From: Betaproteobacteria bacterium
Lineage (GTDB): Bacteria > Pseudomonadota > Gammaproteobacteria > Burkholderiales > SG8-41
Direction of reading: 5' to 3'
DNA: 64,000 nucleotides
Assembly: GCA_947486575.1 (NCBI GenBank)
Contig: CANKUB010000004.1
Coordinates: 22,304-86,303, forward strand
Shown: positions 561 to 61,029 of the stretch, piece after piece
Layout of the letters: each line of letters begins with the position of its first letter
Position numbering within the stretch: the stretch's first letter is position 1
Program-made: the position numbers and the translations under genes
Notes under the pieces: model-generated
Told to the model about the DNA's origin: nothing
Seen by the model: the letters and a program-made list of their open reading frames with translations, nothing else
Database searches by the model: none

Positions 561-596
561 AAAAAAACCCGCAGAAAGTTCTGCGGGTTTTTGTTT
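561..596. terminator. Bidirectional rho-independent terminator between convergent genes
   Basis: Hairpin ACCCGCAG-aaagtt-CTGCGGGT, flanked by an A-run on the left and a T-run on the right. Confidence 0.7.
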
Positions 597-612
597 AAAA
601 ACAAATACTTAG
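593..612 (+). repeat. AT-rich dispersed motif copy
   Basis: GTTTAAAAACAAATACTTAG matches 15/20 of the consensus CAATAAAAACAAATAGTTAC. Its CTTA supplies the stop codon of the minus-strand pilin gene. Confidence 0.55.
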
Positions 613-1298
613 AATAAGCTGGCGGCACCGCAGTTGGTTTCGCTTTTGGTCGCATGCCATTGACCAGTAGCATCAGAGCATACACCCGCCGCATACGCGC
701 CGACATCAGGTAAACCTGTAGCGCTGGCATTGGTGTAACGTGAGAAGCGGAAACTGCCTTGTATGGCATTGCCATCATCACTCTTGCGATCAACTTCAGC
801 AAGAATTTCAACGGGTATTTGGTTCCCAGACTTCAAATTATGCTTGATGACAGCAGTGCCTGAGTAATTGTTGTCAAACACCAACTGAAGATACGTGCTG
901 TACGGATTCTTCGGAGTGTTCGCATCGAGCACCCCCTGGTTAGCCGTTGCCATAGTATAACTGCCGTTTAGGAAGCCCGCCGCCGTCAAGTGGTTCCAGG
1001 CAATCGTTTGTTCGTTATTTCCACCTGAATTTAAGAGCTGGCCGTTGCCGTCGCCGCCAAACAAGACGTTCGCGATGTTCTGAGTTGCACTTGCAGTCGC
1101 GTAATCACCCGGCAACGCCCGAAACCGATCCTGAAACCCAAAATAAGCCGCCTTGATACCATCCTGCTGCGAAATCAAATTACGCACCCGCGCACTGGTA
1201 ATCAGCTCTTGACCTTTCAGCACACCGCCGAGCAGCAGGCCGATAATCACCAGCACAATTGCAATTTCAATCAGTGTAAAACCGCTTTGCTTCTTCAT
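609..1298 (-). CDS. Prepilin-type N-terminal cleavage/methylation domain protein (type IV pilin-like / pseudopilin)
   Basis: Internal ATG at 1298 with a GGGAGA RBS. The N-terminus MKKQSGFTLIEIAIVLVIIGLLLGG is the class III signal (G/FTLIE). There is a C-terminal Cys pair (GVCSD…ETNCG). The longer ORF-track start at 1511 was rejected. Confidence 0.8.
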   Translation of the reverse strand: MKKQSGFTLIEIAIVLVIIGLLLGGVLKGQELITSARVRNLISQQDGIKAAYFGFQDRFRALPGDYATASATQNIANVLFGGDGNGQLLNSGGNNEQTIAWNHLTAAGFLNGSYTMATANQGVLDANTPKNPYSTYLQLVFDNNYSGTAVIKHNLKSGNQIPVEILAEVDRKSDDGNAIQGSFRFSRYTNASATGLPDVGAYAAGVCSDATGQWHATKSETNCGAASLF

Positions 1299-1442
1299 TA
1301 CCGTTCTCCCTTGGTACTTGGTTCGTGGTATTTGCCAGAAATAAGTGTCTGGCTGTGCCAATATAAACGCAAGCTTTGTACCTGCTTGTTGCAGCAATAA
1401 ATGCCTTATACGCATGTTAATAAAACCACAGCATGGAACTCT

Positions 1443-1462
1443 ATAACTATATGGTTTTATTA
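1443..1462 (-). repeat. AT-rich dispersed motif copy
   Basis: The reverse complement TAATAAAACCATATAGTTAT matches 16/20. It lies in the pilin upstream region, which holds further fragments (about 1359-1485). Confidence 0.55.
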
Positions 1463-1574
1463 ACTTATTATTGTTTCGTTGTTGGTTTATTACTACAGAA
1501 ATTATTGACATTTCAGAGGCATTTTGCTGAACCCTTAGGCACGATACCGTCTTTTGCTTAACGAGGTTTCAACA

Positions 1575-2321: not shown

Positions 2322-2322
2322 T

Positions 2323-3155: not shown

Positions 3156-4871
3156 ATGCCCGTAGGTTCGATGCCGCAGACACAGAATGCGAAAAGTAGT
3201 TTCATCGCGCGCCACGCCCATATCTGGCTGGGGCTGATGCTGCTGACACTGCATGCGGCCACCGCATGGGGCACGGGCACGGTTTGGGCTTCTGCATTGC
3301 TGCTGGCGCACTTTGGCTTGTTTCTAATGTGGCAGCCTTTATGGCAGGGCGACGGCGAACTGCGCCCCGCGCAGGCATTGCTGGTTATATTGTTCGGTTT
3401 ACTGTTGGCCACGTTCAGCAGTTGGTGGTTGATTGCGGTGTGGCTGGCGGTGCTGACAGCGTTGATTGGCGGTGGCGTGCCCAGCCTTACGCGTGGCCGT
3501 CAGCGCCTGGCGTCGATGATGGCCGCACTCTATTTGCTGGCACTGCTGCTGATGTGGGTGGTGCCGCAATTGGCGGGGCAGCTATCCACCGACGTTATGC
3601 AACCCGCACTGGTGCCGGTGGTGCGCTATGGCCTGCTGCTGATTGCACTGGCTATTCTGTTTGTGCGTGCTGCACCGGCACGTAACGTCACCCATGTTGC
3701 GGTGGATGTGTTTTACAGCCTCATGTTGTTTCTGCTGGTGGCGGCGCTGGTGTTGGGCAGCCTGGTGCTGGTCAAAACCAATCAAGGGCAATACTTGGTG
3801 GCGTTGGCGCAAACACTCATCATGATTGCGGTGGCGCTGGTGGGGTTATCGTGGCTGATGAGTCCGACGGCAGGGTTCGCCGGTTTTGATCAATTGCTGT
3901 CGCGTTACCTGATGAGCGTAGGTTTGCCGTTCGAGCAATGGGTGCAGCGGCTGGCGCAGATCGCGGAGCACGAAAGCGCGCCGCAGCAATTTCTCGATGC
4001 TGCACTGGAGCACATGCTGGCGCTGCCGTGGGTGATCGGCCTGCGCTGGGAAACGCCGCTGGGTTCAGGCCACTACGGGCGGCTGAATGAACACTACGCG
4101 GATTTTACCTTTGACGATTTGACGCTGCGCATTCATACGCGCTGGGCGCTGTCGCCCGCAATGTTGTTGCATGTAAAGTTGCTGGCGCAGATGATCGGCC
4201 ACTTTCACGCCGCCAAATTACGCGAACAGATGCAGCGCAAAAATGCCTATACGCAGGCGATTCATGAAACGGGTTCGCGTCTGACGCACGATGTCAAGAA
4301 TCTGCTGCAATCGCTGCATGCACTCTGCACGCTGAGTGCCACAGCGCAAGACAACACACCCGAACAATCGGCCGCATTGCTGGCGTTGATGCAGCGGCAG
4401 TTGCCGCAGATCACGCAACGGTTAAGCGCCACGCTGGATAAACTGGGCACGCCCGATCAGATTGAATCGCGCCACACCGACGCGGCGGACTGGTGGCGCG
4501 CGCTGCAACAACGTTACGCCTATCGCAATGTGCGCCTGATATTGCAGGGCGAGTTGAATGAACGCAGCGTGCCCGTTGAGGTATTCGACAGCATTATCGA
4601 CAATCTGATTGAAAACGCGCTGCGCAAAGCTTCGGAAGTTCAAGTCACATTTGCGCCCGCACGCATGACATTAACCGTCTGCGACGCCGGTGAGGCAATA
4701 CCCAAAGCGCTGGCAGTGCAGTTATTTAGCGCGCCAGTGGCATCCAACGCCGGTTTGGGCGTGGGGCTGTATCACGCGGCTCGCCTGGCTGCACAACACG
4801 GTTACGCATTGACGTTGGCGAACAATGAACCGGGTGAGGTTTGTTTCAGGCTGGTGCCCGATGAAAAATAA
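3156..4871 (+). CDS. Sensor histidine kinase with a large polytopic N-terminal membrane domain
   Basis: About 8 TM segments are followed by an H-box (THDVKNLLQSL), an N-box (IDNLIENALRKA) and a G-box (NAGLGVGLYHAARLA). No response regulator gene is adjacent. Confidence 0.75.
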   Translation: MPVGSMPQTQNAKSSFIARHAHIWLGLMLLTLHAATAWGTGTVWASALLLAHFGLFLMWQPLWQGDGELRPAQALLVILFGLLLATFSSWWLIAVWLAVLTALIGGGVPSLTRGRQRLASMMAALYLLALLLMWVVPQLAGQLSTDVMQPALVPVVRYGLLLIALAILFVRAAPARNVTHVAVDVFYSLMLFLLVAALVLGSLVLVKTNQGQYLVALAQTLIMIAVALVGLSWLMSPTAGFAGFDQLLSRYLMSVGLPFEQWVQRLAQIAEHESAPQQFLDAALEHMLALPWVIGLRWETPLGSGHYGRLNEHYADFTFDDLTLRIHTRWALSPAMLLHVKLLAQMIGHFHAAKLREQMQRKNAYTQAIHETGSRLTHDVKNLLQSLHALCTLSATAQDNTPEQSAALLALMQRQLPQITQRLSATLDKLGTPDQIESRHTDAADWWRALQQRYAYRNVRLILQGELNERSVPVEVFDSIIDNLIENALRKASEVQVTFAPARMTLTVCDAGEAIPKALAVQLFSAPVASNAGLGVGLYHAARLAAQHGYALTLANNEPGEVCFRLVPDEK

Positions 4872-4872
4872 C

Positions 4873-4893
4873 TTATTTAAAACAATAGCTTAC
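4873..4893 (+). repeat. AT-rich dispersed motif copy (indel variant)
   Basis: TTATTTAAAACAATAGCTTAC lies between the convergent histidine kinase and mutY genes and overlaps the mutY stop. Confidence 0.5.
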
Positions 4894-5934
4894 GATAAGC
4901 TTCCTCACGGGTGTTGGCAGCGCTGCGCGAACCGCGTCTTCCATGGATAACCATATTACTTTCGGCACGCGCGCTGTGGATTTTTTCACATCCAGCAGCA
5001 GCGGTTCGATGTTCAGCTTGAAATGCGTGAAACTATGCGCAAGCGTAGGTAGTGTTTTGGACGCCAGCACTGTAGCGCCATGGCGCTTGGCCGCTGCTGA
5101 TACTTCGCGCGCGTGACTTACTTCCGGCAGCGACCACAGTCCGCCCCAGATGCCTTTCGCTTCACGCTTTTCGAGCAGAATTTCTCCGGCGTTGCGCATC
5201 AGCAGCATCACGGTTTCGCGCTGCGGCAATGCTGCGCGCGGTTTTTTACCCGGCAAAATTTCAGTAAGCCCACTTAAGTGAGCCACACAATCGGCGCCCA
5301 ATGGACAGCTTGCACACTGCGGCTTGCTGCGCGAACAGAGGCTAGCGCCTAAATCCATCAGGCCTTGGGTGTACGCCACGATGCCGCTTCGGGGAGGCAA
5401 CAGCGCTTCGGCGTGTTGCCACAGTTTTCGCTGCACCTTTGTTTCACCGGGATAGCCGTGCACGCCGCAATAACGCGCCAGCACGCGCTTGACGTTGCCA
5501 TCGAGTATCGCGTGACGTCCGCCATAGGCAAACACGCAAATTGCAGCCGCCGTAGAGCGTCCGATGCCGGGAAGTTCCTGCACCGCTTCAGGATCGTTCG
5601 GCATAACGCCGCCGTGTCGCTCGACAATCAAATCAGCCGCCTTGTGCAGATTGCGCGCGCGCGAGTAGTAACCGAGACCGCTCCAAAGCGTTAACACCGC
5701 ATCCAGCGGTGCAGCAGCCAGCGCGTTTACATTGGGGAATTTTTTAAGAAAGTTTTTGTAATACGGAATGACGGTGCCGACCTGCGTTTGCTGCAACATG
5801 ATCTCCGACAGCCATATCCGATAGGCGTCGCGCGTGCCCTGCCAGGGTAAATCATGTCGTCCGTGGCGCTTGTGCCACGCGATGAGGCGCGTGGACGCGC
5901 TGCGCTCAGCGGCCAAAAATTCCCTTGAGCACAT
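4873..5934 (-). CDS. mutY: A/G-specific adenine DNA glycosylase
   Basis: HhH-GPD core (LPWQ…YRIWLSEIMLQQTQV), an Fe-S cluster loop (CSRSKPQCASCPLGADC) and a NUDIX-like C-terminus. The start is uncertain (5934, 5946 or 6012) and overlaps the asmA 3' end. Confidence 0.85.
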   Translation of the reverse strand: MCSREFLAAERSASTRLIAWHKRHGRHDLPWQGTRDAYRIWLSEIMLQQTQVGTVIPYYKNFLKKFPNVNALAAAPLDAVLTLWSGLGYYSRARNLHKAADLIVERHGGVMPNDPEAVQELPGIGRSTAAAICVFAYGGRHAILDGNVKRVLARYCGVHGYPGETKVQRKLWQHAEALLPPRSGIVAYTQGLMDLGASLCSRSKPQCASCPLGADCVAHLSGLTEILPGKKPRAALPQRETVMLLMRNAGEILLEKREAKGIWGGLWSLPEVSHAREVSAAAKRHGATVLASKTLPTLAHSFTHFKLNIEPLLLDVKKSTARVPKVIWLSMEDAVRAALPTPVRKLIVSYCFK

Positions 5935-8250: not shown

Positions 8251-8324
8251 TGGAGCGGGTGAAGGGAATCGAACCCTCGTATGCAGCTTGGGAAGCTGCC
8301 GTTCTACCATTGAACTACACCCGC
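8251..8324 (-). tRNA. tRNA-Gly (anticodon CCC), CCA encoded
   Basis: The reverse complement GCGGGTGTAGTTCAATGGTAGAAC…GCAGCTTCCCAAGCTGC…GGTTCGATTCCCTTCACCCGCTCCA folds as a cloverleaf. The anticodon loop is TTCCCAA. Confidence 0.9.
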
Positions 8325-10424: not shown

Positions 10425-11228
10425 ATGACTGTGCATGACAATCTGGATTCGCTGCTGATCGGCGGCAAGGCGTACCACTCGCGTTTGATGGTGGGCACTG
10501 GCAAGTACAAGGATTTTGCAGAAACCCGTGCGGCAGTCGATGCCAGCGGCGCGCAAATCATAACGGTGGCGATACGCCGTACCAATATTGGCCAAAATCC
10601 CAACGAGCCGAGCTTGCTGGACGCGCTGCCACCGTCGCAATTTACCCTGCTGCCGAATACGGCGGGATGTTATTCCGCAGACGACGCCGTGCGCACCTTG
10701 CGTCTTGCGCGTGAGTTGCTCGACGGCCACGATCTGGTCAAACTCGAAGTGCTGGGCGATCCCAAAACGCTGTATCCCAATGTGGTCGAAACCATCGCTG
10801 CCGCCAAGACCCTGGTGAAAGACGGCTTCAAAGTGATGGTCTACACCTCGGATGACCCCATCATCGCCAAACAACTTGAAGAAATCGGCTGCGTCGCGGT
10901 TATGCCGCTGGCTTCGCTGATCGGCTCTGGCATGGGCATTCTGAATCCGTGGAATCTGCAAATTATCATCGAAAACGCCAAGGTGCCGGTGGTGGTGGAT
11001 GCCGGTGTGGGCACAGCGTCGGATGCAGCGATTGCGATGGAACTCGGCTGCGACGCGGTGCTGATGAACACCGCAATTGCTGCTGCGCGCGACCCGGTAT
11101 TGATGGCGTCTGCGATGAAAAAAGCAGTGGAGGCCGGGCGTGATGCGTGGCGCGCAGGGCGTATGCCTAAAAAGCTGTATTCAGCTTCGCCAAGTTCACC
11201 GACGGGCGGTATGATCGGCAAGGCCTAG
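10425..11228 (+). CDS. thiG: Thiazole synthase
   Basis: Full-length match to the ThiG pattern (…GTGKY…NTAGC…KLEVL…PLASLIGSG…). Confidence 0.95.
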
Positions 11229-11236
11229 AAAAATAT

Positions 11237-11256
11237 CAATAAAAACAAATAGTTAC
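11237..11256 (+). repeat. AT-rich dispersed motif copy
   Basis: CAATAAAAACAAATAGTTAC matches 20/20 and is preceded by AAATAT. It sits in the thiG-trmB spacer. Confidence 0.85.
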
Positions 11257-11279
11257 AGTTCTCTGTGTAACTACCTAGT

Positions 11280-15106: not shown

Positions 15107-15212
15107 TTCTCATCCTTATTTTATTGACGGCAAATTTAACATGTAATTTACCGCAAGCCCCGCTACCGGTGCATCAACCCCACCGTTAACCTGACATCAA
15201 GTTGAAGAAACC

Positions 15213-15232
15213 GTAACTTATTGTATTTATTG
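15213..15232 (-). repeat. AT-rich dispersed motif copy
   Basis: The reverse complement CAATAAATACAATAAGTTAC matches 17/20, with flanks CCG… and …AGATATT. It lies downstream of hemW. Confidence 0.75.
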
Positions 15233-15248
15233 AGATATTCTCAGTATA

Positions 15249-16454: not shown

Positions 16455-17068
16455 GCGACGATATTCAATCTGCCCAGTTTTACGGCAAGTTCCGCCAGCG
16501 CTTTGCCGCGATGACTGATTTTATTTTTTTCTGCCGCAGGCAATTCCGCCGCCGTTTTGTTCAACGCAGGCAGAAAAAAATACGGGTCGTAACCAAAGCC
16601 GCCGTCGCCACGCGGCGTATCGATTATTTTGCCATGCCAGCGCCCTTCAGCAATCAACGGTTCAGGATCATCCGCATGGCGCACCAACGCGATCACGCAG
16701 ACGTAGTGCGCGCCAAGGTCGCCTTTGCCAGCAAGCGACGCCATCAACTTTGCATTGTTGCGTGCATCCTGTGCTTCCCGATCGCCGGCCGCATCAGCAA
16801 AACGGGCTGAATGTACGCCTGGCGCACCACCCAGTGCATTCACGCAAATTCCTGAATCGTCTGCGAACGCGGGCAAACCCGATGCACGGCTGGCGTGTCG
16901 CGCTTTGGCCAGCGCATTTTCAATAAAGGTGCAATGCGGTTCTTCCGCCTCTGCAATGCCTAACGCCGCCTGCGAAAGTAATGTCAGCCCCAACGGCTCG
17001 CACAGTTGCTGAAACTCACGCAGCTTGCCGGGGTTGCCCGAGGCCAGAACGAGCTTATCGAATGTCAC
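16451..17068 (-). CDS. rdgB: dITP/XTP pyrophosphatase
   Basis: GNPGKLREF, FADDSG and KISHRG motifs. GTG start at 17068. Confidence 0.9.
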   Translation of the reverse strand: MTFDKLVLASGNPGKLREFQQLCEPLGLTLLSQAALGIAEAEEPHCTFIENALAKARHASRASGLPAFADDSGICVNALGGAPGVHSARFADAAGDREAQDARNNAKLMASLAGKGDLGAHYVCVIALVRHADDPEPLIAEGRWHGKIIDTPRGDGGFGYDPYFFLPALNKTAAELPAAEKNKISHRGKALAELAVKLGRLNIVA

Positions 17069-17076
17069 AAAATAAT

Positions 17077-17096
17077 CAATAAAAACAAATGCTTAC
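17077..17096 (+). repeat. AT-rich dispersed motif copy
   Basis: CAATAAAAACAAATGCTTAC matches 18/20. The 23 nt at 17076-17098 are identical to 27467-27489. The copy overlaps the rph stop codon. Confidence 0.85.
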
Positions 17097-17818
17097 GGCG
17101 CATCGAATGCGGCGTGCTGTTTAGCGATTAACGCACGGATTCCGCTTTGAGCTAACTCAATCAGTGCATCCATTTCCGCGCGCGAAAACGGCGCGCCTTC
17201 GGCAGTGCCCTGAATTTCGATCATGCCGCCGCTGCCGGTCATCACCACATTCATGTCGGTATCGCAGGTGGAGTCCTCTGCGTAATCCAGATCCAGCAGC
17301 GGCGTGCCCGCGTGTATGCCCACCGAAACCGCCGCAACGTGTTCGCGTATCGGCGATGCTGCAATCAATTTTTTTGCCAGCAATCCACTGACCGCATCAT
17401 GCAGCGCAACGAACGCCCCAGTGATGCTCGCGGTGCGCGTGCCACCATCGGCTTGCAGCACATCACAATCCAGATGAATCGAGCGCGGCCCCAGCGCATT
17501 TAAATCCACTACCGCGCGCAGCGACCTGCCGATCAGGCGTTGTATCTCTTGCGTGCGCCCCGATTGTTTGCCGCGTGCCGCTTCACGATCCATACGTGTG
17601 TGCGTGCTTCGCGGCAGCATGCCGTACTCTGCCGTCACCCAGCCTTGCTGCGTGCTACGCAAATGCGGCGGCTGTTTTTCCAGCACGCTTGCCGTACACA
17701 ATACCTTGGTGTTGCCGCTTTCGATCAGCACGGATCCTTCGGCGTGACACGTATAGTTGCGCGTGATGCGGATGGTGCGCAATTCGTCGGGTTTTCTACC
17801 GCTGTGACGTGTGCTCAT
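17093..17818 (-). CDS. rph: Ribonuclease PH
   Basis: [14 protein letters not shown]…HAEGSVL… and the rest follow the RNase PH pattern. The internal ATG at 17818 is preferred over the ORF-track start. Confidence 0.9.
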
Positions 17819-18795: not shown

Positions 18796-19842
18796 ATGAC
18801 GAAAAATATCACCTCACTTACGATCACCCGCCCCGACGATTGGCACCTGCATTTGCGCGATGGCGACTATCTGCGCGCGGTGTTGCCCGATACGGCAAAA
18901 CGGTTTGCGCGCGCCATCGTGATGCCCAATCTCAAACCGCCCGTAACAACGGTTGCGCGGGCGTTGGCTTATCGGCAACGCATTCTTGATGCGCTGCCAG
19001 CGCAGTTACGCTTTGAACCGCTGATGACGTTATACCTCACTGACAACACGCGGCCTGAAGAAATTATTCAATCAAAACAAATAGATAGTATTAAGGCTGT
19101 CAAGTATTACCCGGCCGGTGCGACCACTAACTCTGACGCGGGCGTGACCGATCTGGCGCGTTGTGCCGCCGTGCTCGAAGCGATGCAGGAAACGGGCTTG
19201 CCACTGCTGGTGCATGGCGAAGTGACGGACGCGGCGGTGGATATTTTTGATCGTGAGCGGGTGTTCCTGGAGCGTGAACTTGCGCCACTGATGGCGCGTT
19301 ATCCGCGCCTGAAAATTGTCGTCGAACATATCACCACGCGCGAGGCGGCGCAGTTTGTGATGGCTGCACCCGCAAATATCGCGGCGACGATTACGTCGCA
19401 TCACCTGTTACTCAATCGCAATGCGTTGTTTGCGGGCGGCATGCGGCCACACAATTATTGTTTGCCGGTGTTAAAGCGCGAGGTGCATCGTGAAGCACTG
19501 GTGGCGGCGGCAATCTCTGGCAATGCAAAGTTTTTTCTGGGCACTGACAGCGCGCCGCACGCGCGGCATACCAAAGAAGTGGATTGCGGTTGCGCGGGCT
19601 GCTATACGGCGCACGCGGGCATTGAGCTTTATGCTGAGGCGTTTGAGGCAGCGGGGGCGCTGCATAAATTGGAGGGTTTCGCCAGTCACTTCGGTGCGGA
19701 TTTTTATGGCCTGCCGCGCAACAGTGAGACCATCACGCTGGTAAAAGAAGCGTGGCGCGTGTCGATGGATGTGGCGTATGGGGATGACCGGCTGACGCCG
19801 TTTCGTGCGGGCGGCGAAATCAGTTGGACGTTGACGGTTTGA
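18796..19842 (+). CDS. pyrC: Dihydroorotase (homodimeric type)
   Basis: DDWHLHLRD metal-binding motif, [11 protein letters not shown] and FLGTDSAPH. Confidence 0.9.
19069..19088 (+). repeat. AT-rich dispersed motif copy, intragenic (pyrC)
   Basis: CAATCAAAACAAATAGATAG matches 17/20 and encodes …IQSKQIDS…. Confidence 0.6.
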
Positions 19843-21264: not shown

Positions 21265-21528
21265 GGTAATCCTTATGAGTTGCGGTGAGTGATTTTAAGG
21301 CCGCGGCACGGCATCGCCTGCCAAATCCTGCTAACAGGCGAGCAAGGATGGACAGGGTAACCAGGATATTTCGACAAAATCCGGCGAGCGCACACTAAAT
21401 CCTGCTGGTTTTGTGCCGCGAAACTTTCGCGCGTCGAATTTTATGTTGCAGTACCGCAACGTACCGCAATTCCCCATGTTTTCGTACGCTCAGCGTACAT
21501 ACTTAAAGCGTTACTTTTGGAAATATTT

Positions 21529-21548
21529 GTAACTTATTGTTTTTATTG
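21529..21548 (-). repeat. AT-rich dispersed motif copy
   Basis: The reverse complement CAATAAAAACAATAAGTTAC matches 18/20. It lies in the dcw upstream region, about 270 nt before mraZ. Confidence 0.8.
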
Positions 21549-21662
21549 TATTTAATTTTTCTGAAACAAGCTTGTTTTAGGCTTCATTTTTGCACTTAAG
21601 TCATTGTCAACAAAAAGAAAATCCCTATTTTTGAGGGCTTGTAAAAATGTACCTTCCCCAAG

Positions 21663-26767: not shown

Positions 26768-28146
26768 TGCGCGTATCCGAAGCCGCGTTTGCCCTTGGTG
26801 TTGATCATCGCGGCGATAACCCGACGTTCACATCGGTCGGCACGGATAGCCGCAACGTCAAACCCGGTGAACTGTTTATCGCCCTGCGCGGCGAACATTT
26901 TGACGCGCATCAACATATTGCAGCGGCGCGGGCCGCTGGCGCCATAGCGGCAATAGCCGATGTGGCAGGCGCACCCCTTGCACCAGCCGATATGCCGCTC
27001 ATCACCGTAAACAATACGCGCAGCGCACTCACGCAACTGGCGTATGCGTGGCGCAGCCGCTTCAGCATGCCGCTGGTGGCGCTCACTGGTAGCAGCGGCA
27101 AAACGACCGTGAAGGAAATGCTGGCCGCTATTTTGCGTGAGCACGTGGGCGATGCGGTGCTCGCCACACGCGGCAATCTGAATAACGAAATCGGTGTGCC
27201 ATTGATGTTGCTGGAACTCAACGCATCGCATCGTTATGCAGTGATTGAGCTCGGCATGAATCACAGCGGTGAAATCAGCCGGCTCACGCAATTGGCGTGT
27301 CCGAATGTGGCGCTGATTAACAACGCGGGCCGCGCGCACATTGAGTATCTGGGTAGCGAGGACGCTATCGCGCGCGCCAAGGGCGAAATTTTCGAAGGAC
27401 TGTCGAGCCAGGGCGTTGCCGTGATCAATGCGGATGATGCGCACGCTACGCTATGGCAGAAATTAGTCAATAAAAACAAATGCTTACGGTTTGGCATTGA
27501 ACAACCCGCAGACATCAGCGCGCGTTACACACTAAGTGCGACTGCGACTGCGAGTGAGATGATGATCACTGCACCCACCGGCTCGGTCAACGTCACGCTT
27601 AACGCGCCGGGTTTGCACAATGTGCGTAACGCGCTGGCGGCGTGCGCGGCAGCAGTGGCGCTGAACGTACCTATAGCCGTAATCCAATCGGGCTTGTCGC
27701 GTTACAGCGGATTCAAAGGCCGTTTGCAACGCAAAGCCGCGCCGGGTGGCGCGACCATCATTGACGACACCTACAACGCCAATCCGGAATCGGTACGTGC
27801 GGCGATAGACGTGTTGGCGCACGTGCCGGGCAAACGGTTACTGGTGCTGGGCGATATGGGTGAACTGGGCGAGCGTGCGGCTGCCTGCCACACCGAGATC
27901 GGTGCCTACGCACGTCAGGTGCGTATCGAAAAGCTGTATGCGCTGGGCGAAATGTCCGCACTGACTGCGGTGGCGTTCGGCGCAGGCGCGCGCCATTTTG
28001 AGAGTATCGAAGCCCTGCAAGCGGCATTGAAGGCGGAACTCGCGCCCGACGTTACGGCACTGGTGAAGGGTTCGCGCTTCATGAAAATGGAGCGTGTTGT
28101 GGAGGCTTTGATCGCCGGTGCAAAGGAGGATTACGTATGCTCCTAG
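26764..28146 (+). CDS. murF: UDP-N-acetylmuramoyl-tripeptide--D-alanyl-D-alanine ligase
   Basis: [14 protein letters not shown]-loop and position in the dcw cluster. Confidence 0.92.
27468..27487 (+). repeat. AT-rich dispersed motif copy, intragenic (murF)
   Basis: CAATAAAAACAAATGCTTAC matches 18/20 and encodes …[10 protein letters not shown]…. Confidence 0.85.
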
Positions 28147-31770: not shown

Positions 31771-32843
31771 GCCGCACCCTGATGATCATGGCAGGCGGTA
31801 CCGGCGGCCACATCTACCCTGCGATTGCGGTGGCGGATTATTTGCGCGACAAAGGCTGGCAAATTGTGTGGCTGGGTTCGCAGGCAGGCATGGAAGCGCG
31901 CATTGTGCCGCCGAAGGGTTACGCACTGGCGTGGATACGCTTTTCAGGTTTACGCGGCAAAGGCCTGTTGCGCGCGTTGATGCTGCCGTTTAATTTGCTG
32001 ATAGCGTGCGCGCAAAGCGCAGCTGCGATTTTTACGCACCGGCCCGATGTGGTGCTGGGCATGGGTGGTTATGTGGCGTTTCCCGGTGGTCTGATGGCAG
32101 CGCTGATGCAGCGTCCGTTAGTGATACACGAGCAAAATTCGGTGGCAGGTTTGACCAATCGCATGCTGGCGCGGTTTGCCAATTCCGTTTTGATGACTTT
32201 CCCAAATGCATTTAAAAACAATAAGTTAGCTAAATGGGTGGGCAATCCAACACGCGCGGATATCGGCGCGCTGGCGGCGCCTGACGCGCGCTTTGCCGCG
32301 CGCAGCGGCAAGCTGAATGTGATGGTGTTGGGCGGCAGTCAAGGTGCGGCGGTGCTGAATGACACATTACCCAAAGCGCTGGCGTTGATGTCGGAAAATG
32401 CGCGTCCGCAGGTCACGCATCAATCGGGCGCAGCGCACATTGAGGCCTTGCGTACCGCGTATGCGGCGGTGGGTGTGCAGGCGGAAGCGCTGCCGTTTAT
32501 TGACGACATGGCGGCGCGTTATGCGGCGGCTGATCTGGTGATATGCCGCGCGGGCGCATCCACAGTGACCGAAATCGCCAACGTCGGTGTGGCGTCCGTT
32601 ATGGTGCCGTTGCCGTGGGCGGTTGACGATCATCAAACCACCAATGCGCGTTATCTGGCTGATCGCGGTGCTGCGATTTTGATTCCGCAGGCAGAATTTA
32701 CGGCGGAGAAAGTCGCGGCGCTATTGCAAAGTTTCACGCGCGACAAGCTGCTGGAAATGGCTCGTGCCGCGCGCACCGCGGCCAAGCCTGACGCCACGCG
32801 CACAGTCGGCGATATTTGTGTGGAGTTGGCGCATGCGGCATAA
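31767..32843 (+). CDS. murG: UDP-N-acetylglucosamine--N-acetylmuramyl-(pentapeptide) pyrophosphoryl-undecaprenol GlcNAc transferase
   Basis: The ATG at 31767 overlaps the ftsW stop. [12 protein letters not shown] motif. Confidence 0.92.
32210..32229 (+). repeat. AT-rich dispersed motif copy, intragenic (murG)
   Basis: ATTTAAAAACAATAAGTTAG matches 14/20 of the consensus and 16/20 of the 21529 variant. It encodes …FKNNKLAK…. Confidence 0.5.
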
Positions 32844-34224: not shown

Positions 34225-35159
34225 ATATGGCAGACGCCACAAATCTGCAAAGCTTGCGTGGGGCACTGCGGCTCAACGAGCCGATGTCGAAGCACGTCAG
34301 TTGGCGCGCCGGTGGCGTGGCCGCGCGCACTTACGCGCCAGCCGATTTGGATGATCTTTGTGCATTTTTGCGCTCGATTTCACGTACAGAGGGCTTGTAC
34401 TTTGTTGGACTTGGCAGTAATCTCCTGGTACGCGACGGTGGGGTGCGAGCCACCGTCGTGTTTACGCATTGGGCGCTAAGGCAAATTACATTGCTGAGCA
34501 CGGGAGAAAGCAACATCGAAATTCATGCCGGGGCAGGCGTTGCCTCCCCCAAGGTGGCACGTTTTGCAGCGCTACATGGCGCGCAAGGGGCTGAATTTCT
34601 CGCGGGAATCCCTGGTACCATCGGCGGCGCGCTGGCGATGAACGCCGGGTGCTATGGTGGCGAGACTTGGGAGCTCGTTTCGAGCGTGACCACGATTGAC
34701 CGTGCGGGTGGTTTGCATCAGCGCGCGCCCAATGAATTTCACATCGGCTATCGCAGTGTCAAAAGTATCAGCGGTTTGGCGGACGAGTGGTTTGTGTCGG
34801 CGAACTTTAAAGTGCCGCATGGCGATGCGGATAACGCAAGTGAGAAATCTCGCAATAAAATCAAACAGTTACTATCAAAACGCATTGCCAGCCAGCCGTT
34901 GCAGCAGCCCAACGCGGGTTCGGTGTTTCGCAATCCGCTGAATGATCACGCAGCGCGCTTGATTGAAGTGTGCGGGCTCAAAGGCACACGTATCGGCGGC
35001 GCTGAAATCTCGTTGAAGCACGCCAACTTCATCGTCAACACCGGCGACGCTACTGCAGCGGATATCGAATCACTGATCGATCTGGCGCAAAACACCGTAC
35101 GCGAAAAATTCGGCATTACGCTTGAGCGCGAAGTGCGCATCATCGGGGAACACGCGTGA
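34221..35159 (+). CDS. murB: UDP-N-acetylenolpyruvoylglucosamine reductase
   Basis: FAD-binding PCMH-type N-terminus and the MurB C-terminal domain (NAGSVFRNP). Confidence 0.9.
34853..34872 (+). repeat. AT-rich dispersed motif copy, intragenic (murB)
   Basis: CAATAAAATCAAACAGTTAC matches 18/20 and encodes …RNKIKQLL…. Confidence 0.7.
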
Positions 35160-38079: not shown

Positions 38080-38096
38080 GCATGACATTTGATATT

Positions 38097-38116
38097 GTAA
38101 ATATTTGTTTTTAAAC
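38097..38116 (-). repeat. AT-rich dispersed motif copy
   Basis: The reverse complement GTTTAAAAACAAATATTTAC matches 16/20. It sits in the 78-nt ftsA-ftsZ spacer. Confidence 0.65.
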
Positions 38117-38157
38117 GGTTTTAATTTTAACAATCGACGCAAAAACGGAGGCACAAA

Positions 38158-39401: not shown

Positions 39402-39415
39402 ATTTAAAAATAACT

Positions 39416-39435
39416 GAATAAAAACAACAGGTTAA
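39416..39435 (+). repeat. AT-rich dispersed motif copy
   Basis: GAATAAAAACAACAGGTTAA matches 15/20. It lies just after the ftsZ terminator. Confidence 0.5.
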
Positions 39436-39520
39436 TTTGGGTTTGCGGTGGGTGTTCCATTGGCGCTGAACGACCGTAGCGAACAACCGCGGTATGCTTT
39501 GCGTTTCAGGAGTGAGCGAC

Positions 39521-40498: not shown

Positions 40499-40560
40499 GT
40501 TAGACTTTTTGCATGCGCCCGACATCATTGCGGTGCGGGCGATGCGGCTTCATGTAGTTT

Positions 40561-40580
40561 ATAACGTATTGTTTTTATTG
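40561..40580 (-). repeat. AT-rich dispersed motif copy
   Basis: The reverse complement CAATAAAAACAATACGTTAT matches 16/20, with an ATATT flank. It abuts the ATG of a Bug gene. Confidence 0.7.
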
Positions 40581-40586
40581 ATATTT

Positions 40587-41582
40587 ATGTCAAAATTGCG
40601 AATGCCCTTTGGGGCCATTGCTACAGTTGTTACTGTCGCTGCTGCATGGCTTGCGGCAGCGCTGCCACTGCATGCGCAGTCTTACCCCACGCGCCCGATC
40701 CGGTTGATTATTCCATTGCCACCTGGCGGCGGCGCTGATTTTATCGGGCGTGTTGTCGGGCAGAAACTGTCTGAGCAGTTCGGCCAGCCCGTGGTGGCCG
40801 ATAACCGTGGCGGTGCCAGTGGCGCCATCGCGGGCGAGCTCGCTGCACGCGCAGCGCCTGACGGCTACACACTGTTTCTTGCCTATGCCGCTTCGCACGG
40901 CATCAACCCGGCGATGAGCAAACTGCCGTACGACGCGCTCAATGACTTCACTGCGATCACGCATATGGCGTCGTCGCAGAACGTTGTCACTTCGCACCCC
41001 TCTTTTGCTGCGCGCTCGATCAAGGAGCTTGTAGCCGCTGCGCGCGCCAAGCCCGGACAAATCACCTACGCTTCGGCGGGCTTTGGCAGTTCAACGCATC
41101 TATCGGCTGTGCTACTGGGGCAAATGTCAGGTGTAACGTTCAACCACGTGCCGCACAAAGGTGCTGGCCCTGCGCTGATTGATTTGCTGGGTGGGCACGT
41201 GCACTTTGCGTTCTCAAGTCTGCCAGCCGCACTGCCGCACACGCGCACGGGCAAACTGCGCGCGCTGGCGGTGAGCGGTCTCAAACGCTCATCGATTGTG
41301 CCTGATCTGCCCACCGTGGCAGAAGGCGGACTGCCCGGCTTCGATACCAATCAGTGGTACGCGCTGCTGGGCCCGGCAAAACTGCCGACGCCTATCGTGA
41401 AGCGGCTGCACGACGAAACCCTGCGCGCAATGAACGTGCCCGATGTGCGCGCCAGGCTCGATCAGCAGGGCTTTGAGATCGAAGGTTCAACGCCCGAAGC
41501 GTGCCGCGAGTACATCCGCAGCGAACTCGCCAAATGGGCGAAGCTCGTGGTGGCTGCGGGCCTGACGGCAGACAGGCCATAA
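40587..41582 (+). CDS. Bug/TctC-family periplasmic substrate-binding protein
   Basis: Signal peptide plus TRPIRLIIPLPPGGGAD block. The start is ATG 40587 or 40602, with no clear RBS because a motif copy abuts the start. Confidence 0.8.
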   Translation: MSKLRMPFGAIATVVTVAAAWLAAALPLHAQSYPTRPIRLIIPLPPGGGADFIGRVVGQKLSEQFGQPVVADNRGGASGAIAGELAARAAPDGYTLFLAYAASHGINPAMSKLPYDALNDFTAITHMASSQNVVTSHPSFAARSIKELVAAARAKPGQITYASAGFGSSTHLSAVLLGQMSGVTFNHVPHKGAGPALIDLLGGHVHFAFSSLPAALPHTRTGKLRALAVSGLKRSSIVPDLPTVAEGGLPGFDTNQWYALLGPAKLPTPIVKRLHDETLRAMNVPDVRARLDQQGFEIEGSTPEACREYIRSELAKWAKLVVAAGLTADRP

Positions 41583-49873: not shown

Positions 49874-49906
49874 ATGTAGAGCAAATAGGGTCAGACACGA
49901 TATATC

Positions 49907-49926
49907 GTAACTATTTGTTTTTATTA
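49907..49926 (-). repeat. AT-rich dispersed motif copy
   Basis: The reverse complement TAATAAAAACAAATAGTTAC matches 19/20. It lies between the AAA-ATPase fragment and the GST gene. Confidence 0.85.
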
Positions 49927-49995
49927 ATATATTTTCAGAAACGCATCGTATAGCATCGCGCCCAAGGACGACGTGTTGGCAGACGCCTGATCCCA

Positions 49996-51372: not shown

Positions 51373-51435
51373 GGCGCTATTTTGCAGAATATCAGGTGAT
51401 TAATCCAGGGTGGCAAGGGCGACAGTCAGTATAAC

Positions 51436-51455
51436 GCAAGTATTTGTTTTTATTG
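51436..51455 (-). repeat. AT-rich dispersed motif copy
   Basis: The reverse complement CAATAAAAACAAATACTTGC matches 18/20. It lies upstream of the HEPN gene. Confidence 0.8.
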
Positions 51456-51657
51456 AATTTTTATAAAATACTGATCACACCGATATCCCCGAATTCTGCA
51501 AAAACGCCCGTTGCAAATCCCACCGCGTGGCACCCGCCTATCAACGCACGGAACCGGGAACCCAGGGACAGGTCTTGCAATCTAGCAAAACCGACGATCT
51601 TCGCGTCATAGCCCCCGATGTTACCGACCGCGAAAGTCAGTTGCGCAATGGCAATTT

Positions 51658-53272: not shown

Positions 53273-53281
53273 GGTCCACTC

Positions 53282-56982: not shown

Positions 56983-57678
56983 GTTTGCATCTCCAGTAAG
57001 TTGCAGGCCAGGCTGAGAATTAGTCATCGATAAACCCGGACAAATCGCATTGAATCGGACTCGCGCACGTGCGCTGTTTCCTTGAATGTCATTATATTGC
57101 AACGCAGCAATATGGCAAGGGGAGAATATCCATATTTTTGTGGTAGTAACCATCCCACATTAGCGAAATATCAAAACTGGAAAGTAGCCAATAAAAATTT
57201 AATTGCGCCCAGAGTGGCCTGATAAAGCGGCTCAAGCGCATTTTTATGCCCGAGCCTATGGTGTCCGCCGACTGCGGATCGACAATCCCGGTTACAACCG
57301 GTTTGACCAGAATCTCGCGGTTCGCGGCAATGGTCTCTGGCATAGCGGGATGTCGCCGTTGGAATAGGCACTTTTTCAATGACCTTCGACCCGCATTTAG
57401 TGGGGCTACCCTGATTGTCGGTGCCTTCTTATCGCAGGCAAATTGCGTTACGGCAGGTTCTTGGTGATGCATTCCTATCAAACTGCCAGCAAGCTGAAGA
57501 CGCCAAATAGCGAATGTCGGTTTCAAGTTACATTCTTTAGGTAAAAACGTGAAAAAATATACTATTGCGACGCAGCATTTGCGCTTGAAATCGATCAATG
57601 CATTGCGCACACTGAGCGCTTGGAATGCCATGGCCGGATCGCGCCATTGATGGCATGCGCAAAACGAAGGAGCGAGTA

Positions 57679-57915: not shown

Positions 57916-58097
57916 TTTGCAATAGCGATTAGGCGCGAACCGCTTCATGTAGTTATTCGACCACGCATTTCGTGAATACGGAAATCGTGATTCCCGATCA
58001 ATCTCAAGCAAAAACAGGCTTGGATATCGGCACGCGATGGCGCTTCATGCGCATTGGCACGGCACTTCATGGAATCCAGGGTCAGATGAGATAGAGT

Positions 58098-58117
58098 GTA
58101 ACTATCTGTTTTTATTA
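58098..58117 (-). repeat. AT-rich dispersed motif copy
   Basis: The reverse complement TAATAAAAACAGATAGTTAC matches 18/20. It lies between the zinc-ribbon gene and the small 89-aa gene. Confidence 0.8.
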
Positions 58118-58205
58118 ATTATTTTTATATTTCCTTGGCTTGCTTTGTAAGCCATCAACCTAGGTAACAACGTGACTTCTGCTGCGCACCGCGCGCCTAA
58201 AAACG

Positions 58206-58475
58206 TTATGCAAGACCTTTCTTCAACAGCGCGGCGACCATTTCATTCATCCCCAGTTTTTGTGCAGCCGCCGCTTCTGTGAGTGCGGCCACCAGCTCAC
58301 CCGGCAGCTTGCAGGCAAAAGGCGCCAGCCCGGCTGCTTGATCGAGTTTGCGCTGTTCCTTGCGATTGAGTACCACGCTACCCTTGCCGAATCGATCGGT
58401 GCGTGCTTCCTGCTTCATATGGCCGCTGGCTTTGGACATGTTGCCTTTGGCGATGTCAGATATTTTCATGCTCAT
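58206..58475 (-). CDS. Small hypothetical protein, possible ribbon-helix-helix-like C-terminus
   Basis: An 89 aa ORF. The C-terminal KLPGELVAALTEAAAAQKLGMNEMVAALLKKGL resembles a strand-helix-helix DNA-binding fold. This assignment is weak. Confidence 0.4.
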   Translation of the reverse strand: MSMKISDIAKGNMSKASGHMKQEARTDRFGKGSVVLNRKEQRKLDQAAGLAPFACKLPGELVAALTEAAAAQKLGMNEMVAALLKKGLA

Positions 58476-58792
58476 GGTGCACCTGTAAAGTTGTGATGGC
58501 CTGCAAAAGCACGAATGGGTGTTGCCGGGTCGTACCGGGACGCAAATCTGACCCGAACCAGTGTAACCCGGCGCAGAGCGTACAGCACCATGCGCCGCTC
58601 AAATTTGCGAGTGAATAACGGCAAACCGGCTACGTTCTTACCGGGCGGGCCGGTCGAGGGGGGTATTCAGCGCACAGGTGCACCGCACCGGTACTGCCAT
58701 GTTGCACCAAGCTGGCACGGCGATTGCTAGGTAAATGCCCGGGTGTAATGTATTCTTTCGGTGCAGTCTGCACAGACCAACAAGAGGAAACC

Positions 58793-60085
58793 ATGTTCAA
58801 ACCGATGTCTACCGTAGTAACCACTCTGGCAGCCGTGGCTGCGATTTGCGCTGCTTCTTACCTGCAGGCGCAGTCTGTAGCGCTGCCGGGCAAAAAACTG
58901 CCGGGCAAGTTTCATCTACTGCCGGCCACGCTGGAAACCACGCAGTGGGGCTGGTTCAACAACGCGCAGCCGCCGGTGCTGCGCGTGGATTCAGGCGACA
59001 CCATCATGATCGAAACCATGATGCACTCACACAATCAGGTGGTACCGGGCAGGACCATCGAAGAAATCAAAAAGATGCGCACCGATCATCCGGGGCGCGG
59101 CCCGCACACGCTGACCGGCCCGATTTATGTGAATGGCGCGGAGCCGGGCGATGTGCTCAAGGTGCGGCTGAACAAAATCGTGCCTCGCGCCTATGCCACC
59201 AACTTCAACGTGCCGGGCATGTTCGGGCAGTTCCCGAAGGAGTATCAGGACGGGCAGGTGAAGTATCTTTATCTTGATCTGGAACGCAAGGTCACCGAAT
59301 TTCTGCCCGGCGTGTTTGTGCCGCTCAAGCCGTTCCCCGGCACACTGGGCGTGGCGCGCAAAGAGTCCGGCCAGTACAGCTCGGTGCCGCCCGGTGAATA
59401 CGCGGGCAACATGGATATTCGTGATTTCGTCGAGGGCACTACACTGTATGTGCCGGTGCATGTATCCGGCGCACTGTTATGGACCGGTGACTCGCATGCG
59501 GCGCAGGGTAACGGCGAGGTCAATCTGACCGCGCTTGAGACCGCGTATCGCGAACTCAATGTCACCGTTGAAGTGGTCAAGAACCTGAAGTTCGACATGC
59601 CGCGCATTGAAACGCCGACGTCGTGGATAACCATGGGCTTTGATAGCGACCTGAACAAGGCGCTGGAAATCGCGATGGAGCAGACCGCGAAGTTTCTGGC
59701 CGAGCAGCGCAAGCTGCCGGTGGACGAGGCGGCGAAGCTGATGAGCCGCGTATCGGACTGTCGCGTGTCGCAGGTGGTGAACATCAAAAAAGGCATACAC
59801 TGCCTCAATCCGAAGAACCCCGCCTCGCGCGAAGACATGGAACGTCCCGAGCGCGAAACCACGCAATATTACGTCACGCATTTCAAGGACAAGGATATGA
59901 ACCGCGCCATGGACGACGCCTCGCGCGCGATGATCAAGTTGCTGGAAGAGAAAAAGGGCGTTGCGCGGCTGGATGCCTACGGGCTCGCCAGTGTCGCGAT
60001 GGATTGCCGCGTCGGTAACGTGTGGGGCGCTGAGAAAAACGTGCATTGCCTGGTGCCCAAAAGTCTCTGGCGGGCGCCGAAATAA
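58793..60085 (+). CDS. Acetamidase/formamidase-family amidohydrolase with an N-terminal signal peptide
   Basis: ATG at 58793 after an AGAGGAAA RBS. MFKPMSTVVTTLAAVAAICAASYLQAQ signal peptide. Family block GPIYVNGAEPGDVLKVRL. Confidence 0.8.
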   Translation: MFKPMSTVVTTLAAVAAICAASYLQAQSVALPGKKLPGKFHLLPATLETTQWGWFNNAQPPVLRVDSGDTIMIETMMHSHNQVVPGRTIEEIKKMRTDHPGRGPHTLTGPIYVNGAEPGDVLKVRLNKIVPRAYATNFNVPGMFGQFPKEYQDGQVKYLYLDLERKVTEFLPGVFVPLKPFPGTLGVARKESGQYSSVPPGEYAGNMDIRDFVEGTTLYVPVHVSGALLWTGDSHAAQGNGEVNLTALETAYRELNVTVEVVKNLKFDMPRIETPTSWITMGFDSDLNKALEIAMEQTAKFLAEQRKLPVDEAAKLMSRVSDCRVSQVVNIKKGIHCLNPKNPASREDMERPERETTQYYVTHFKDKDMNRAMDDASRAMIKLLEEKKGVARLDAYGLASVAMDCRVGNVWGAEKNVHCLVPKSLWRAPK

Positions 60086-60090
60086 TCATC

Positions 60091-61029
60091 GTGGGTCGAT
60101 GGGCAGGCGCCGCTCCCGTGGGAGCGGCGCTGCGATTTTTGGCGGTGCTTGCGGTGGCGCTGTGGACCGCTGGCGCGGCCGGCCAGCAGCCCTTGCGGGT
60201 GGTGGCCACCACCACCGATCTGAAAAGCCTGATGGAAGCCGTCGGTGGCAACCGCGTGCAGGTGGTGAGCCTGGTGCCGCCGCAACTCGATGCCGAGGAC
60301 TACCAGCCCAAGCCGCAGGATGTGGCGCGGCTGCGCGACGCCGCCCTGCTGCTGCGCGTGGGTGCCGACTACGATTTGTGGGCCGACAAACTCGTGCGGC
60401 AAAGCGGCCGGCGCGAGCTGGCACGCGGCGGCGAGCGTTATGTCGATTGCTCGTTCAGCATTGCGCTGCTGGATGTGCGCGGCACCGAGGTCGGCGCCTC
60501 CGGCGGGCACGCGCATGGCAACGGTAACCCGCACTACTGGCTGGACCCCGCCAACGCCGAAATCATCACCGGCACGATGCTCGAAGCGCTGGCACGCGTG
60601 GATGCGCCCAACGCCAAATTTTACGAAGCCGGGCGCACTCAATTCTTGCAACGTCTGCGTGACAAAATGCGCGCGTGGGACCAAGCCGTTGCACCTGCGC
60701 AGGGCAAGCCGATGATCGCGTATCACAACACCTGGGCGTATTTCGCGCGCCGTTTCCGGCTGAATTTCGCCGCCACCATCGAGCCGCGTCCCGGTGTGCC
60801 GCCTACTCCGTCGCATCTGGCAGGGTTGAAAAATATCATTAAAAAACAAAATGTTATGGCCATCGTGCGGCAACCGAACGAGCCGCTGAAGCACGTGCAG
60901 TTTCTCGCCGGCAAGAGTGGCGCGAAGGTGCTGGTGCTGGCGGCCAGCGTGGGTGCGGTGCCCGAGGCCGGCGATTACCTGTCGCTGTTTGATTACAACA
61001 TCGGCGTGCTGGCGCAGGCGTTCAAGTAA
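60091..61029 (+). CDS. Metal (Zn/Mn-type) ABC transporter substrate-binding protein, ZnuA/TroA-like
   Basis: Signal peptide followed by LRVVATTTDLKSL and GNPHYWLDP motifs. The GTG start at 60091 is uncertain. Confidence 0.8.
   Translation: MGRWAGAAPVGAALRFLAVLAVALWTAGAAGQQPLRVVATTTDLKSLMEAVGGNRVQVVSLVPPQLDAEDYQPKPQDVARLRDAALLLRVGADYDLWADKLVRQSGRRELARGGERYVDCSFSIALLDVRGTEVGASGGHAHGNGNPHYWLDPANAEIITGTMLEALARVDAPNAKFYEAGRTQFLQRLRDKMRAWDQAVAPAQGKPMIAYHNTWAYFARRFRLNFAATIEPRPGVPPTPSHLAGLKNIIKKQNVMAIVRQPNEPLKHVQFLAGKSGAKVLVLAASVGAVPEAGDYLSLFDYNIGVLAQAFK
60837..60857 (+). repeat. AT-rich dispersed motif copy (1-nt insertion variant), intragenic (metal SBP)
   Basis: CATTAAAAAACAAAATGTTAT is preceded by AAAAATAT and encodes …KNIIKKQNVM…. 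Confidence 0.5.

Follow-up and report, generated by a model that had tools for sequence, protein, structure and literature searches.

We analysed a window of 64,000 nucleotides from an uncultured freshwater Burkholderiales bacterium (the whole stretch of contig CANKUB010000004.1 considered here, to which all positions refer) and the oriented, AT-rich motif that is dispersed through it. TctC genes are numerous in the window, the dcw cluster at 21.8-39.3 kb is complete, and the FtsZ is identical to the FtsZ of the metagenome-assembled genome (MAG) GCA_947472555.1 and of lake metagenome contigs. The consensus of the motif, ATAAAATATTCAATAAAAACAAATASTTACGW, extends over about 32-34 nt and amounts to roughly 40 bits against the GC-rich background; 16 robust copies lie in the window, with about 3 degenerate ones. 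An earlier note on this DNA had described a repeat of 20-27 nt, which is shorter than the actual extent; its density claim was borne out, at about one copy per 3.4-4 kb.

The over-representation of the motif in the window is real. When up to 3 mismatches are allowed, the 20-nt core CAATAAAAACAAATAGTTAC has 10 matches against 0.01 expected from dinucleotide-preserving shuffles, all of them on the coordinates and strands originally reported, and the lower match counts reported with them (16/20 at 1443-, 38097- and 40561-, 15/20 at 593 and 39416, 14/20 at 32210) were correct when recounted by hand. According to a 32-nt position weight matrix (PWM) derived from the core matches, 16 window copies score at least 20, and none does so in whole-sequence shuffles or in block shuffles, in which 40-nt blocks retain the local AT-richness. 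The scores of the copies at 583 (14.6) and 60828 (12.6) overlap the range where block shuffles yield 0-3 matches, and the copy at 32210, with a 1-nt indel relative to the PWM, was rescued by orthology with a stronger copy in the related locus L215. An indel variant proposed at 13781 is not above chance in the block shuffles, and neither are the weaker fragments listed at 1359-1485 (except the 1441 copy), 15111-15137, 36857-36870, 43625-43645 and 57163-57210.

Folding of the motif gave minimum free energies of -0.5 to -0.1 kcal/mol on both strands, not better than shuffles, and confirmed the lack of dyad symmetry; the lack of an associated transposase was likewise confirmed among the called genes of the window. 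The Rfam scan of the window detected only RNase P RNA (class A, 233 bits, 19895-20245, +) and one tRNA gene (8254-8324, -), both ordinary, and the motif matches no known RNA. The motif sequence is undescribed in the literature searched, as had been supposed: searches for the sequence and its variants returned only a coincidental primer from the P. aeruginosa estA leader, and nothing relevant came from searches on novel uptake sequences of Burkholderiales or Betaproteobacteria and on repeated elements with sites for the integration host factor (IHF). BLAST of a 35-mer against phage records gave chance-level matches only, and a scan of viral contigs gave mostly chance matches in AT-rich phages.

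The best copy (11227..11258, +, PWM score 52.6) begins at the stop codon of thiG, upstream of trmB, and another strong copy (49905..49936, -, 50.7) lies directly past the stop codon of an AAA_15/21 ATPase gene. The copy at 17067..17098 (+, 47.9) is antisense; it takes up the whole 24-nt gap that separates the RNase PH gene from the rdgB-like gene, both of which are on the minus strand, and reaches into a stop and a start codon. Intergenic sense copies were found at 15211..15242 (-, 40.7) and at 1441..1472 (-, 31.6), the latter upstream of the pilin-like gene 609-1298(-). A copy (21527..21558, -, 41.7) that precedes mraZ by about 240 nt has counterparts in 5 of 6 related species, with position and orientation unchanged. 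The ftsA-ftsZ spacer holds an antisense copy (38095..38126, -, 21.3) with orthologous copies in L214 and L215, the copy downstream of ftsZ (39406..39437, +, 31.5) shows a G/T strain polymorphism at 39416, and the copy between two tctC genes (40559..40590, -, 34.5) is antisense. Further copies lie upstream of an HI0074/MntA-like gene pair (51434..51465, -, 43.7) and in an intergenic position at 58096..58127 (-, 45.6). This last copy and the 49905 copy are 84% identical over 49 nt, beyond the motif: between 49888-49936 and 58078-58126 the likeness runs about 17 nt past it (GGGTCAGAYGA...), by a local duplication or as a longer sub-variant.

Two copies lie between convergent genes. The weak copy at 583..614 (+) is fused to the T-run of a terminator hairpin, and the copy at 4864..4895 (+, 33.7) runs across the stop codon of 3156-4871(+) and supplies the final codons of the MutY-like gene 4873-5916(-), whose C-terminus ...VRKLIVSYCFK* is read from the antisense strand of the motif. 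An orthologous copy is present in L068, where the flanking genes have 68-72% nucleotide identity; the L068 orthologue of the MutY-like gene ends just before the motif, which demonstrates that the motif changes the ends of open reading frames (ORFs). A motif that reaches into start and stop codons and lengthens ORFs or provides them with new ends can mislead annotation.

Copies inside genes were detected in pyrC (19059..19090, +, 43.3, sense), murF (27458..27489, +, 47.4, codon about 235), murD (30183..30214, +, 29.6, codon about 324), murG (32200..32231, +, codon about 148, the degenerate copy with the indel) and murB (34843..34874, +, 39.6, codon about 211), and a weak intragenic sense copy, also with a 1-nt indel, at 60828..60859 (+).

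Among the neighbouring genes, the region 49142-51372 is a small accessory-looking island with strong motif copies on both sides (49905 and 51434). Its ATPase gene (49142-49873, +; AAA_15/AAA_21, OLD/RecF-like) has a low coding score, and 50651-51372 (-) encodes an HI0074-family nucleotidyltransferase substrate-binding subunit and an MntA-like partner, which look like a type VII toxin-antitoxin pair. The region 609-3090 (-) encodes a protein of 229 aa that has an N-terminal methylation motif of the prepilin type (MKKQSGFTLIEIAIVLVIIGLL...) and a pair of C-terminal Cys residues, and its gene is followed by two genes without a family match; a type IV pilus, a competence pilus and a type II secretion pseudopilus are candidate systems for the prepilin-type gene.

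Location and orientation were counted in the window and 82 high-GC loci (620 kb, 89% coding) with our own codon-usage gene caller, whose calls agree with the database gene calls in the window and are the only calls used outside it. The related loci, surveyed at the contig level, were fetched by a strict pattern, so that the sample is biased to good, mostly intergenic copies. About 80% of the copies lie in the roughly 10% of the DNA that is non-coding, and the 20 intragenic copies are 18 sense and 2 antisense, both at odds with the indifference to coding status claimed earlier. The intragenic bias is attributable to coding constraints, since two sense frames of the motif are open (encoding hydrophilic K/N/I peptides) and only one antisense frame is. 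The 86 intergenic copies include 33 sense and 33 antisense copies between co-directional genes, 11 between convergent and 9 between divergent genes; many fill very short spacers, overlapping stop or start codons.

The strand of 124 copies is not linked to local GC skew (68:56, or 40:28 where only strong skew is considered), adjacent copies have the same orientation in 22 cases and the opposite one in 24, and 144 copies comprise 75 on the plus and 69 on the minus strand, with 0 pairs within 150 nt. We reject on these orientation and pairing results the readings at the RNA level (Hfq-binding ARN motif) and as promoter, terminator or replication-polarity signal, the last of which the earlier note had offered as an alternative. 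In the window, copies are spaced slightly more evenly than at random (coefficient of variation, CV, 0.63; P about 0.04), and in the dcw operon, which lacks spacers, intragenic copies lie 2.0-3.3 kb apart.

The motif copies in murF, murD, murG, murB and pyrC take up exactly the codons that are filled by GC-rich sequence in relatives without the motif, and no indels separate the two. In pyrC the motif-less homologues are equal in length and differ in residues; in MurF 14 residues stand in place of LWRELAxGRRxIEF, and in MurD 15 motif-encoded residues are found where motif-less relatives show HRVEKVAEVAGVTFY. The intragenic copies sit at poorly conserved residues and the peptides are reshaped. 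The equal length of the motif-less orthologues shows that the motif spreads by substitution and not by insertion. Together with the lack of a hairpin and the lack of close pairs, this agrees with the earlier judgement that it is not a repetitive extragenic palindrome (REP) or bacterial interspersed mosaic element (BIME), an enterobacterial repetitive intergenic consensus (ERIC), a miniature inverted-repeat transposable element (MITE) or a terminator. AAT and AAA codons are not rare in the genome and only TTA (5%) and ATA (10%) are, so that an argument from synonymous sites is weak.

Comparison with six related dcw clusters, whose concatenated proteins are mutually 65-82% identical, showed that the motif is present at orthologous positions in relatives, a check proposed with the first description: the sites recur at the same codon, frame and orientation, patchily. 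The murF site is shared by the window, L213, L214, L215 and L121, the murD site by the window, L213, L214, L216 and L217, and the murB site by the window, L214 and L216. The mraZ-upstream copy occurs in all compared dcw clusters except L218, where it is replaced by an equal-length GC-rich stretch between conserved blocks; in 6 species it keeps a constant distance to the MraZ boxes while the neighbouring sequence has diverged. In several spacers, too, orthologous intergenic copies persist while their flanks are randomised. Single sites are thus held over long periods, with occasional loss. Upstream of mraZ, three direct GTGG(G/T)A repeats (window 21660-21700; alignment columns 303-331), which we take to be the expected MraZ operator boxes, are invariant in seven species and are preceded by a conserved TAAGTCnTTGTCA block.

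In a scan of one genome per species, at least 30 species-level MAGs held the motif repeatedly; their GC content is 57-68%, their labels are Betaproteobacteria or Burkholderiales, and their sources are lakes, reservoirs, groundwater and glacier-fed streams. Among the matches listed, it is confined to one clade of uncultured freshwater Burkholderiales. The motif is not an artefact, being present in assemblies from many studies and assemblers. As a negative control, 80 dcw regions of other bacteria (about 880 kb, 36-73% GC) gave no PWM match of at least 25 except in L121, the closest relative among them (MurF 68% identical); the part from outside the clade, about 860 kb, is free of copies. No motif copy was found in 21 kb of L218 (JGI Ga0604939_0000061, a 332-kb contig), a sister lineage about as distant as L121, with FtsW 81% identical and a GC content of 66%; equal-length GC-rich sequence stands at every orthologous site, and L218 is a natural motif-less comparator.

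The ATAC and ATAG variants of the motif differ in frequency between MAGs, in small numbers, and strain polymorphism in 10 contigs (97.8-99.99% identity) showed no trend toward or away from the consensus. Several of the hypolimnion MAGs carry the name 'Bordetella parapertussis' (L005, L011-L013, L017, L031, L051, L053, L054 and others); they are clearly not that species, as their GC content, habitat and gene content show, and the public records are mislabelled in this respect. In three further contigs (L269 12050-12350, L224 7140-7290 and L109 1989-2065), two of them viral and one a MAG of 55% GC, 2-3 motif-like copies lie within 50-150 nt of each other, direct or inverted, with one pair seen in L109.

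We detected in the motif an architecture like that of an IHF site, which the earlier note had not seen; three of the four elements match and the fourth, WATCAA, agrees in part. The canonical IHF site covers about 34 bp and consists of WATCAA, TTR four nt later, two AA steps 9 bp apart, which are the points of proline intercalation, and an A4-6 tract in the 5' half (PMC1874591). The motif carries counterparts of all four elements at the exact spacing of the lambda H' site, and its conservation extends over about 32-34 nt. AAAAWA stands at the position of the H' A-tract, and the AA of CAAT (84% and 79% conserved) precedes the AA of CAA (98% and 79%) by exactly 9 bp. The WATCAA element agrees at 5 of 6 positions, the T position being A in 79% and T in 19% of the copies, so that AAACAA is the usual form, and the required positions of TTR are occupied by T (86%), T (98%) and A (95%). 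Conservation within the core is lowest in N4, with 0.6-1.3 bits vs 1.6-2.0 for the flanking CA and TTA.

An IHF template scored on the frequency matrix of 136 copies gave 14.3 out of 17; column-shuffled matrices gave 11.1 +/- 0.68, and the highest of 5000 shuffles reached 13.75 (P<2e-4). A perfect WATCAANNNNTTR is present in the murB (core AATCAAACAGTTA) and L121 copies, the murD copy (core AATCAATAAC) has the ATCAA form without the TTR, and the core of the weak 583 copy, AAACAAATACTTA, fits WAACAAN4TTR. An alternative register, TATCAA-TAAA-AAC, fails at the TTR; the register used here, AAACAA-N4-TTA, was found via the contexts of singleton matches. The in-vivo 33-mer IHF consensus of E. coli, ...AAAnnCAnnnnTTT..., leaves two positions free, the one with A in place of T included, and fits AAAAACA...TT (PMC10380432). 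The density of the motif is comparable with that of IHF-bound regions in E. coli, of which 1042/1022 were reported (PMC3333857).

These singletons are full-length single matches in unrelated GC-rich genomes and in viral contigs, beside mobile-element genes. They were found beside a phage integrase at a dusA junction (L042 6640-6800), 10 nt past a tRNA-Lys gene and beside TraG at the junction of an integrative and conjugative element (L041 3350-3470), upstream of the terminase gene gpA (L329 2180-2250), and beside Prim-Pol and AAA_25 replication genes (L229, L281 and L308, with L281 2250-2340; L317 and L320, with L317 1400-1470). Nearly all have the variant CAATA(A/G)(C/G)TTAC and not the CAAATA(C/G)TTAC of the clade. 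The att, cos and ori regions are classic places for IHF sites.

We suggest that the motif is a double-stranded site of about 34 bp for a bending protein of the IHF type (DNABII family), either the clade's own IHF or a paralogue, a prediction from the sequence to which we give about an even chance. The protein would have the 5' A-tract (AAAAWA) on one flank, the two AA steps (in CAAT and CAA) would be the points where two proline-tipped arms kink the helix, and WA(A/T)CAA-N4-TTA would form the sequence-specific half, so that binding would bend the DNA sharply. The sites, in either orientation, may serve as architectural punctuation in nucleoid folding, at topological boundaries or in local promoter geometry, and would be fixed in place by selection; in an operon without spacers, the site would be written into tolerant protein segments by means of AT-rich codons. 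Intergenic preference without orientation bias is as expected for a double-stranded architectural site.

Several observations weigh against this prediction. WATCAAN4TTR itself is not enriched in the window (4 vs 1.4 expected); WAACAAN4TTR is (14 vs 1.4 expected). In other GC-rich Betaproteobacteria the A-form occurs at 0.008/kb and the T-form at 0.015/kb, against 0.09-0.22/kb for the A-form in the clade, and since both form and density are absent from these relatives, the copies are not ordinary IHF sites. The changed core specificity and the 10-25-fold expansion in the clade call for explanation. Nearly all of the about 30 positions are conserved, whereas IHF requires 15-17, and we know of no reported IHF sites that overwrite coding sequence at conserved positions. 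Uniformity and clade-wide expansion would, by analogy with uptake sequences, arise more naturally from molecular drive. No association with sigma-54 promoters was seen, and tblastn for IhfA, IhfB and HupA among the loci gathered detected no clade gene.

If the IHF-type prediction is true, an architectural site has been pushed to near-identity at many places, about one per 3.5-4 kb in the DNA sampled, imposed on essential genes at an amino-acid cost and kept across deep divergence. The clade would then provide a natural system for the effect of regularly spaced bends on the chromosome, and the co-evolution of nucleoid-protein specificity with its sites could be studied with the motif-less sister lineage.

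A DNA uptake signal, similar to the DNA uptake sequences (DUS) of Neisseriaceae and the uptake signal sequences (USS) of Pasteurellaceae, is the main rival explanation, though a rather unlikely one. A receptor of the competence system, at the surface or in the periplasm, would prefer DNA that carries the motif, and biased uptake with homologous recombination would raise the copy number throughout the clade's core genome. The resemblance to DUS and USS seen in the earlier note holds for the high copy number, the equal use of both strands without transcription or replication bias, the poorly conserved protein segments, the orthologous sites and the restriction to one clade, and does not hold for the supposed indifference to coding. 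Point substitution in coding DNA at poorly conserved residues, with reshaped peptides, is known from USS and DUS (PMC2817400), and the bias of the intragenic copies to one orientation also has its counterpart in intragenic uptake sequences (PMC2346458). The persistence of orthologous sites with patchy gain and loss and the spacing more even than random point in the same direction, and the about 30 uniform positions with the 10-25-fold expansion fit drive better than site-by-site selection. An AT-rich tag would be maximally distinctive in a genome of 58-68% GC, and the prepilin-type gene of the window is weakly in favour.

The uptake signal is opposed by the length of the motif, 30-34 nt with a match to the IHF template, whereas known uptake cores have 9-12 nt, and by its density of 0.1-0.3 per kb, several times below that of known DUS/USS genomes, which carry roughly 1 uptake sequence per kb. 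None of 144 copies forms an inverted pair or a terminator, whereas about half of the known uptake elements (DUES) are in terminators (bioRxiv 10.1101/2025.10.24.684340). The non-coding share of 80% compares with 35-65% for DUS/USS, and the isolated copies at att, cos and ori regions of unrelated mobile elements would be unexplained. Given the IHF architecture, an architectural protein-binding site is at least as likely as an uptake signal. It is speculation that a sharply bending sequence could in principle also serve uptake; a tag of about 32 nt with an IHF-like, bendable design that helps DNA to fold into the uptake pore is improbable in our view. The consequence would be a third independently evolved uptake signal, without precedent beyond Neisseriaceae and Pasteurellaceae or in uncultured environmental bacteria, and we regard it as doubtful to the same degree. 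If true, it would indicate routine, self-preferring natural transformation in abundant freshwater Burkholderiales, and self-recognising transformation would reach a further order as well as environmental bacteria.

Somewhat less probable than an uptake signal is a site for another clade-specific DNA-binding protein, with a coincidental likeness to IHF sites; a tandem winged-helix regulator, a nucleoid-occlusion- or partition-like factor and a self/non-self marker of a defence or repair system would be tentative candidates at the same low confidence. An oriented, non-palindromic motif of about 40 bits, found in one clade only and absent from the sister lineage L218, is consistent with such a protein, as are the core preference unlike that of E. 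coli IHF and a loose internal direct repeat, CAATAAAAA / CAAATAGTT, visible in the motif. A match to the spacing of four IHF elements is unlikely by chance, though, no candidate protein was found, and hundreds of sites per genome are unusual for a specific regulator.

It is very improbable that the motif works in transcription, as a promoter or an UP element, or at the RNA level, where mRNA leaders would carry it as an (ARN)n site for Hfq/Crc (AAU AAA AAC AAA). In favour, the core conforms perfectly to (ARN)4, start codons adjoin many of the copies, and the P. aeruginosa estA leader in an Hfq-Crc study holds a similar string (PMC9890229). The balance of 33:33 relative to co-directional genes is incompatible with such a role, as are the 11 copies between convergent genes and the antisense copies in 24-nt operon spacers; by inspection, no sigma-70-like -35/-10 hexamers could be fitted at a fixed distance, and no sigma-54 association was seen.

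Just as improbable, in our view, is a signal like KOPS, Chi or AIMS, which would mark replication polarity or recombination and follow the leading strand in orientation. The motif is oriented and over-represented, and the window shows a run of mostly plus and then mostly minus copies. The 124 copies compared with local skew (only local skew was used) are divided 68:56 and 40:28, adjacent copies agree in orientation in 22 cases and differ in 24, and no known polarity signal resembles the motif in its length of 30 nt. The consensuses of Fis, H-NS, LysR-type and OmpR-type regulators, DnaA, dif/Xer, Ter/Tus, iterons and single-subunit RNA polymerase promoters fit poorly or imply the wrong copy number.

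The least probable explanation, a miniature mobile element or the terminus of an insertion sequence or MITE spread by transposition, would account for dispersed, similar copies and for the 49 nt that the 49905 and 58096 copies share at 84% identity, but it is refuted for the copies compared, by the unchanged codon counts in murF, murD and pyrC, by the equal-length GC-rich stretch of L218 at the mraZ-upstream site, and by the lack of terminal inverted repeats, hairpin, conserved flanks and a transposase gene in the window.

Under either the IHF-type or the uptake reading, the motif is a simple, highly specific lineage marker in metagenomes.

Compared with IHF sites such as lambda attP H' (WATCAANNNNTTR with a 5' A-tract), the motif is alike in its asymmetric, AT-rich extent of about 34 bp, in its mostly non-coding location, in its independence of orientation and in its occurrence at att, cos and ori regions. 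It differs by A in place of T in 79% of the copies and by about 30 instead of about 15 conserved positions, and its near-identical copies are 10-25 times commoner than in other GC-rich Betaproteobacteria, are limited to one clade and include some that lie inside essential genes and are conserved there. Against the DUS of Neisseriaceae (12 nt) and the USS of Pasteurellaceae (a 9-nt core in about 29-32 nt), the motif resembles the extended USS in length; its sequence is unrelated and entirely AT-rich, its density is lower, it avoids coding DNA much more, and its host order, Burkholderiales, has no known uptake sequence. The RIB/RIP elements of E. coli BIMEs and the Correia elements of Neisseria are repeats that carry an IHF site and are mostly intergenic. 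In these the IHF site is part of a palindromic REP cluster or of a MITE that has terminal inverted repeats and is spread by insertion, whereas the motif stands alone, without a palindrome, and was born by substitution. The HIP1 sequence of cyanobacteria, an 8-bp palindrome (GCGATCGC), is dispersed, evolved by substitution in genes and spacers and is kept at orthologous positions, and its function is debated; the motif described here differs from it in its length of about 32 nt and its lack of dyad symmetry.

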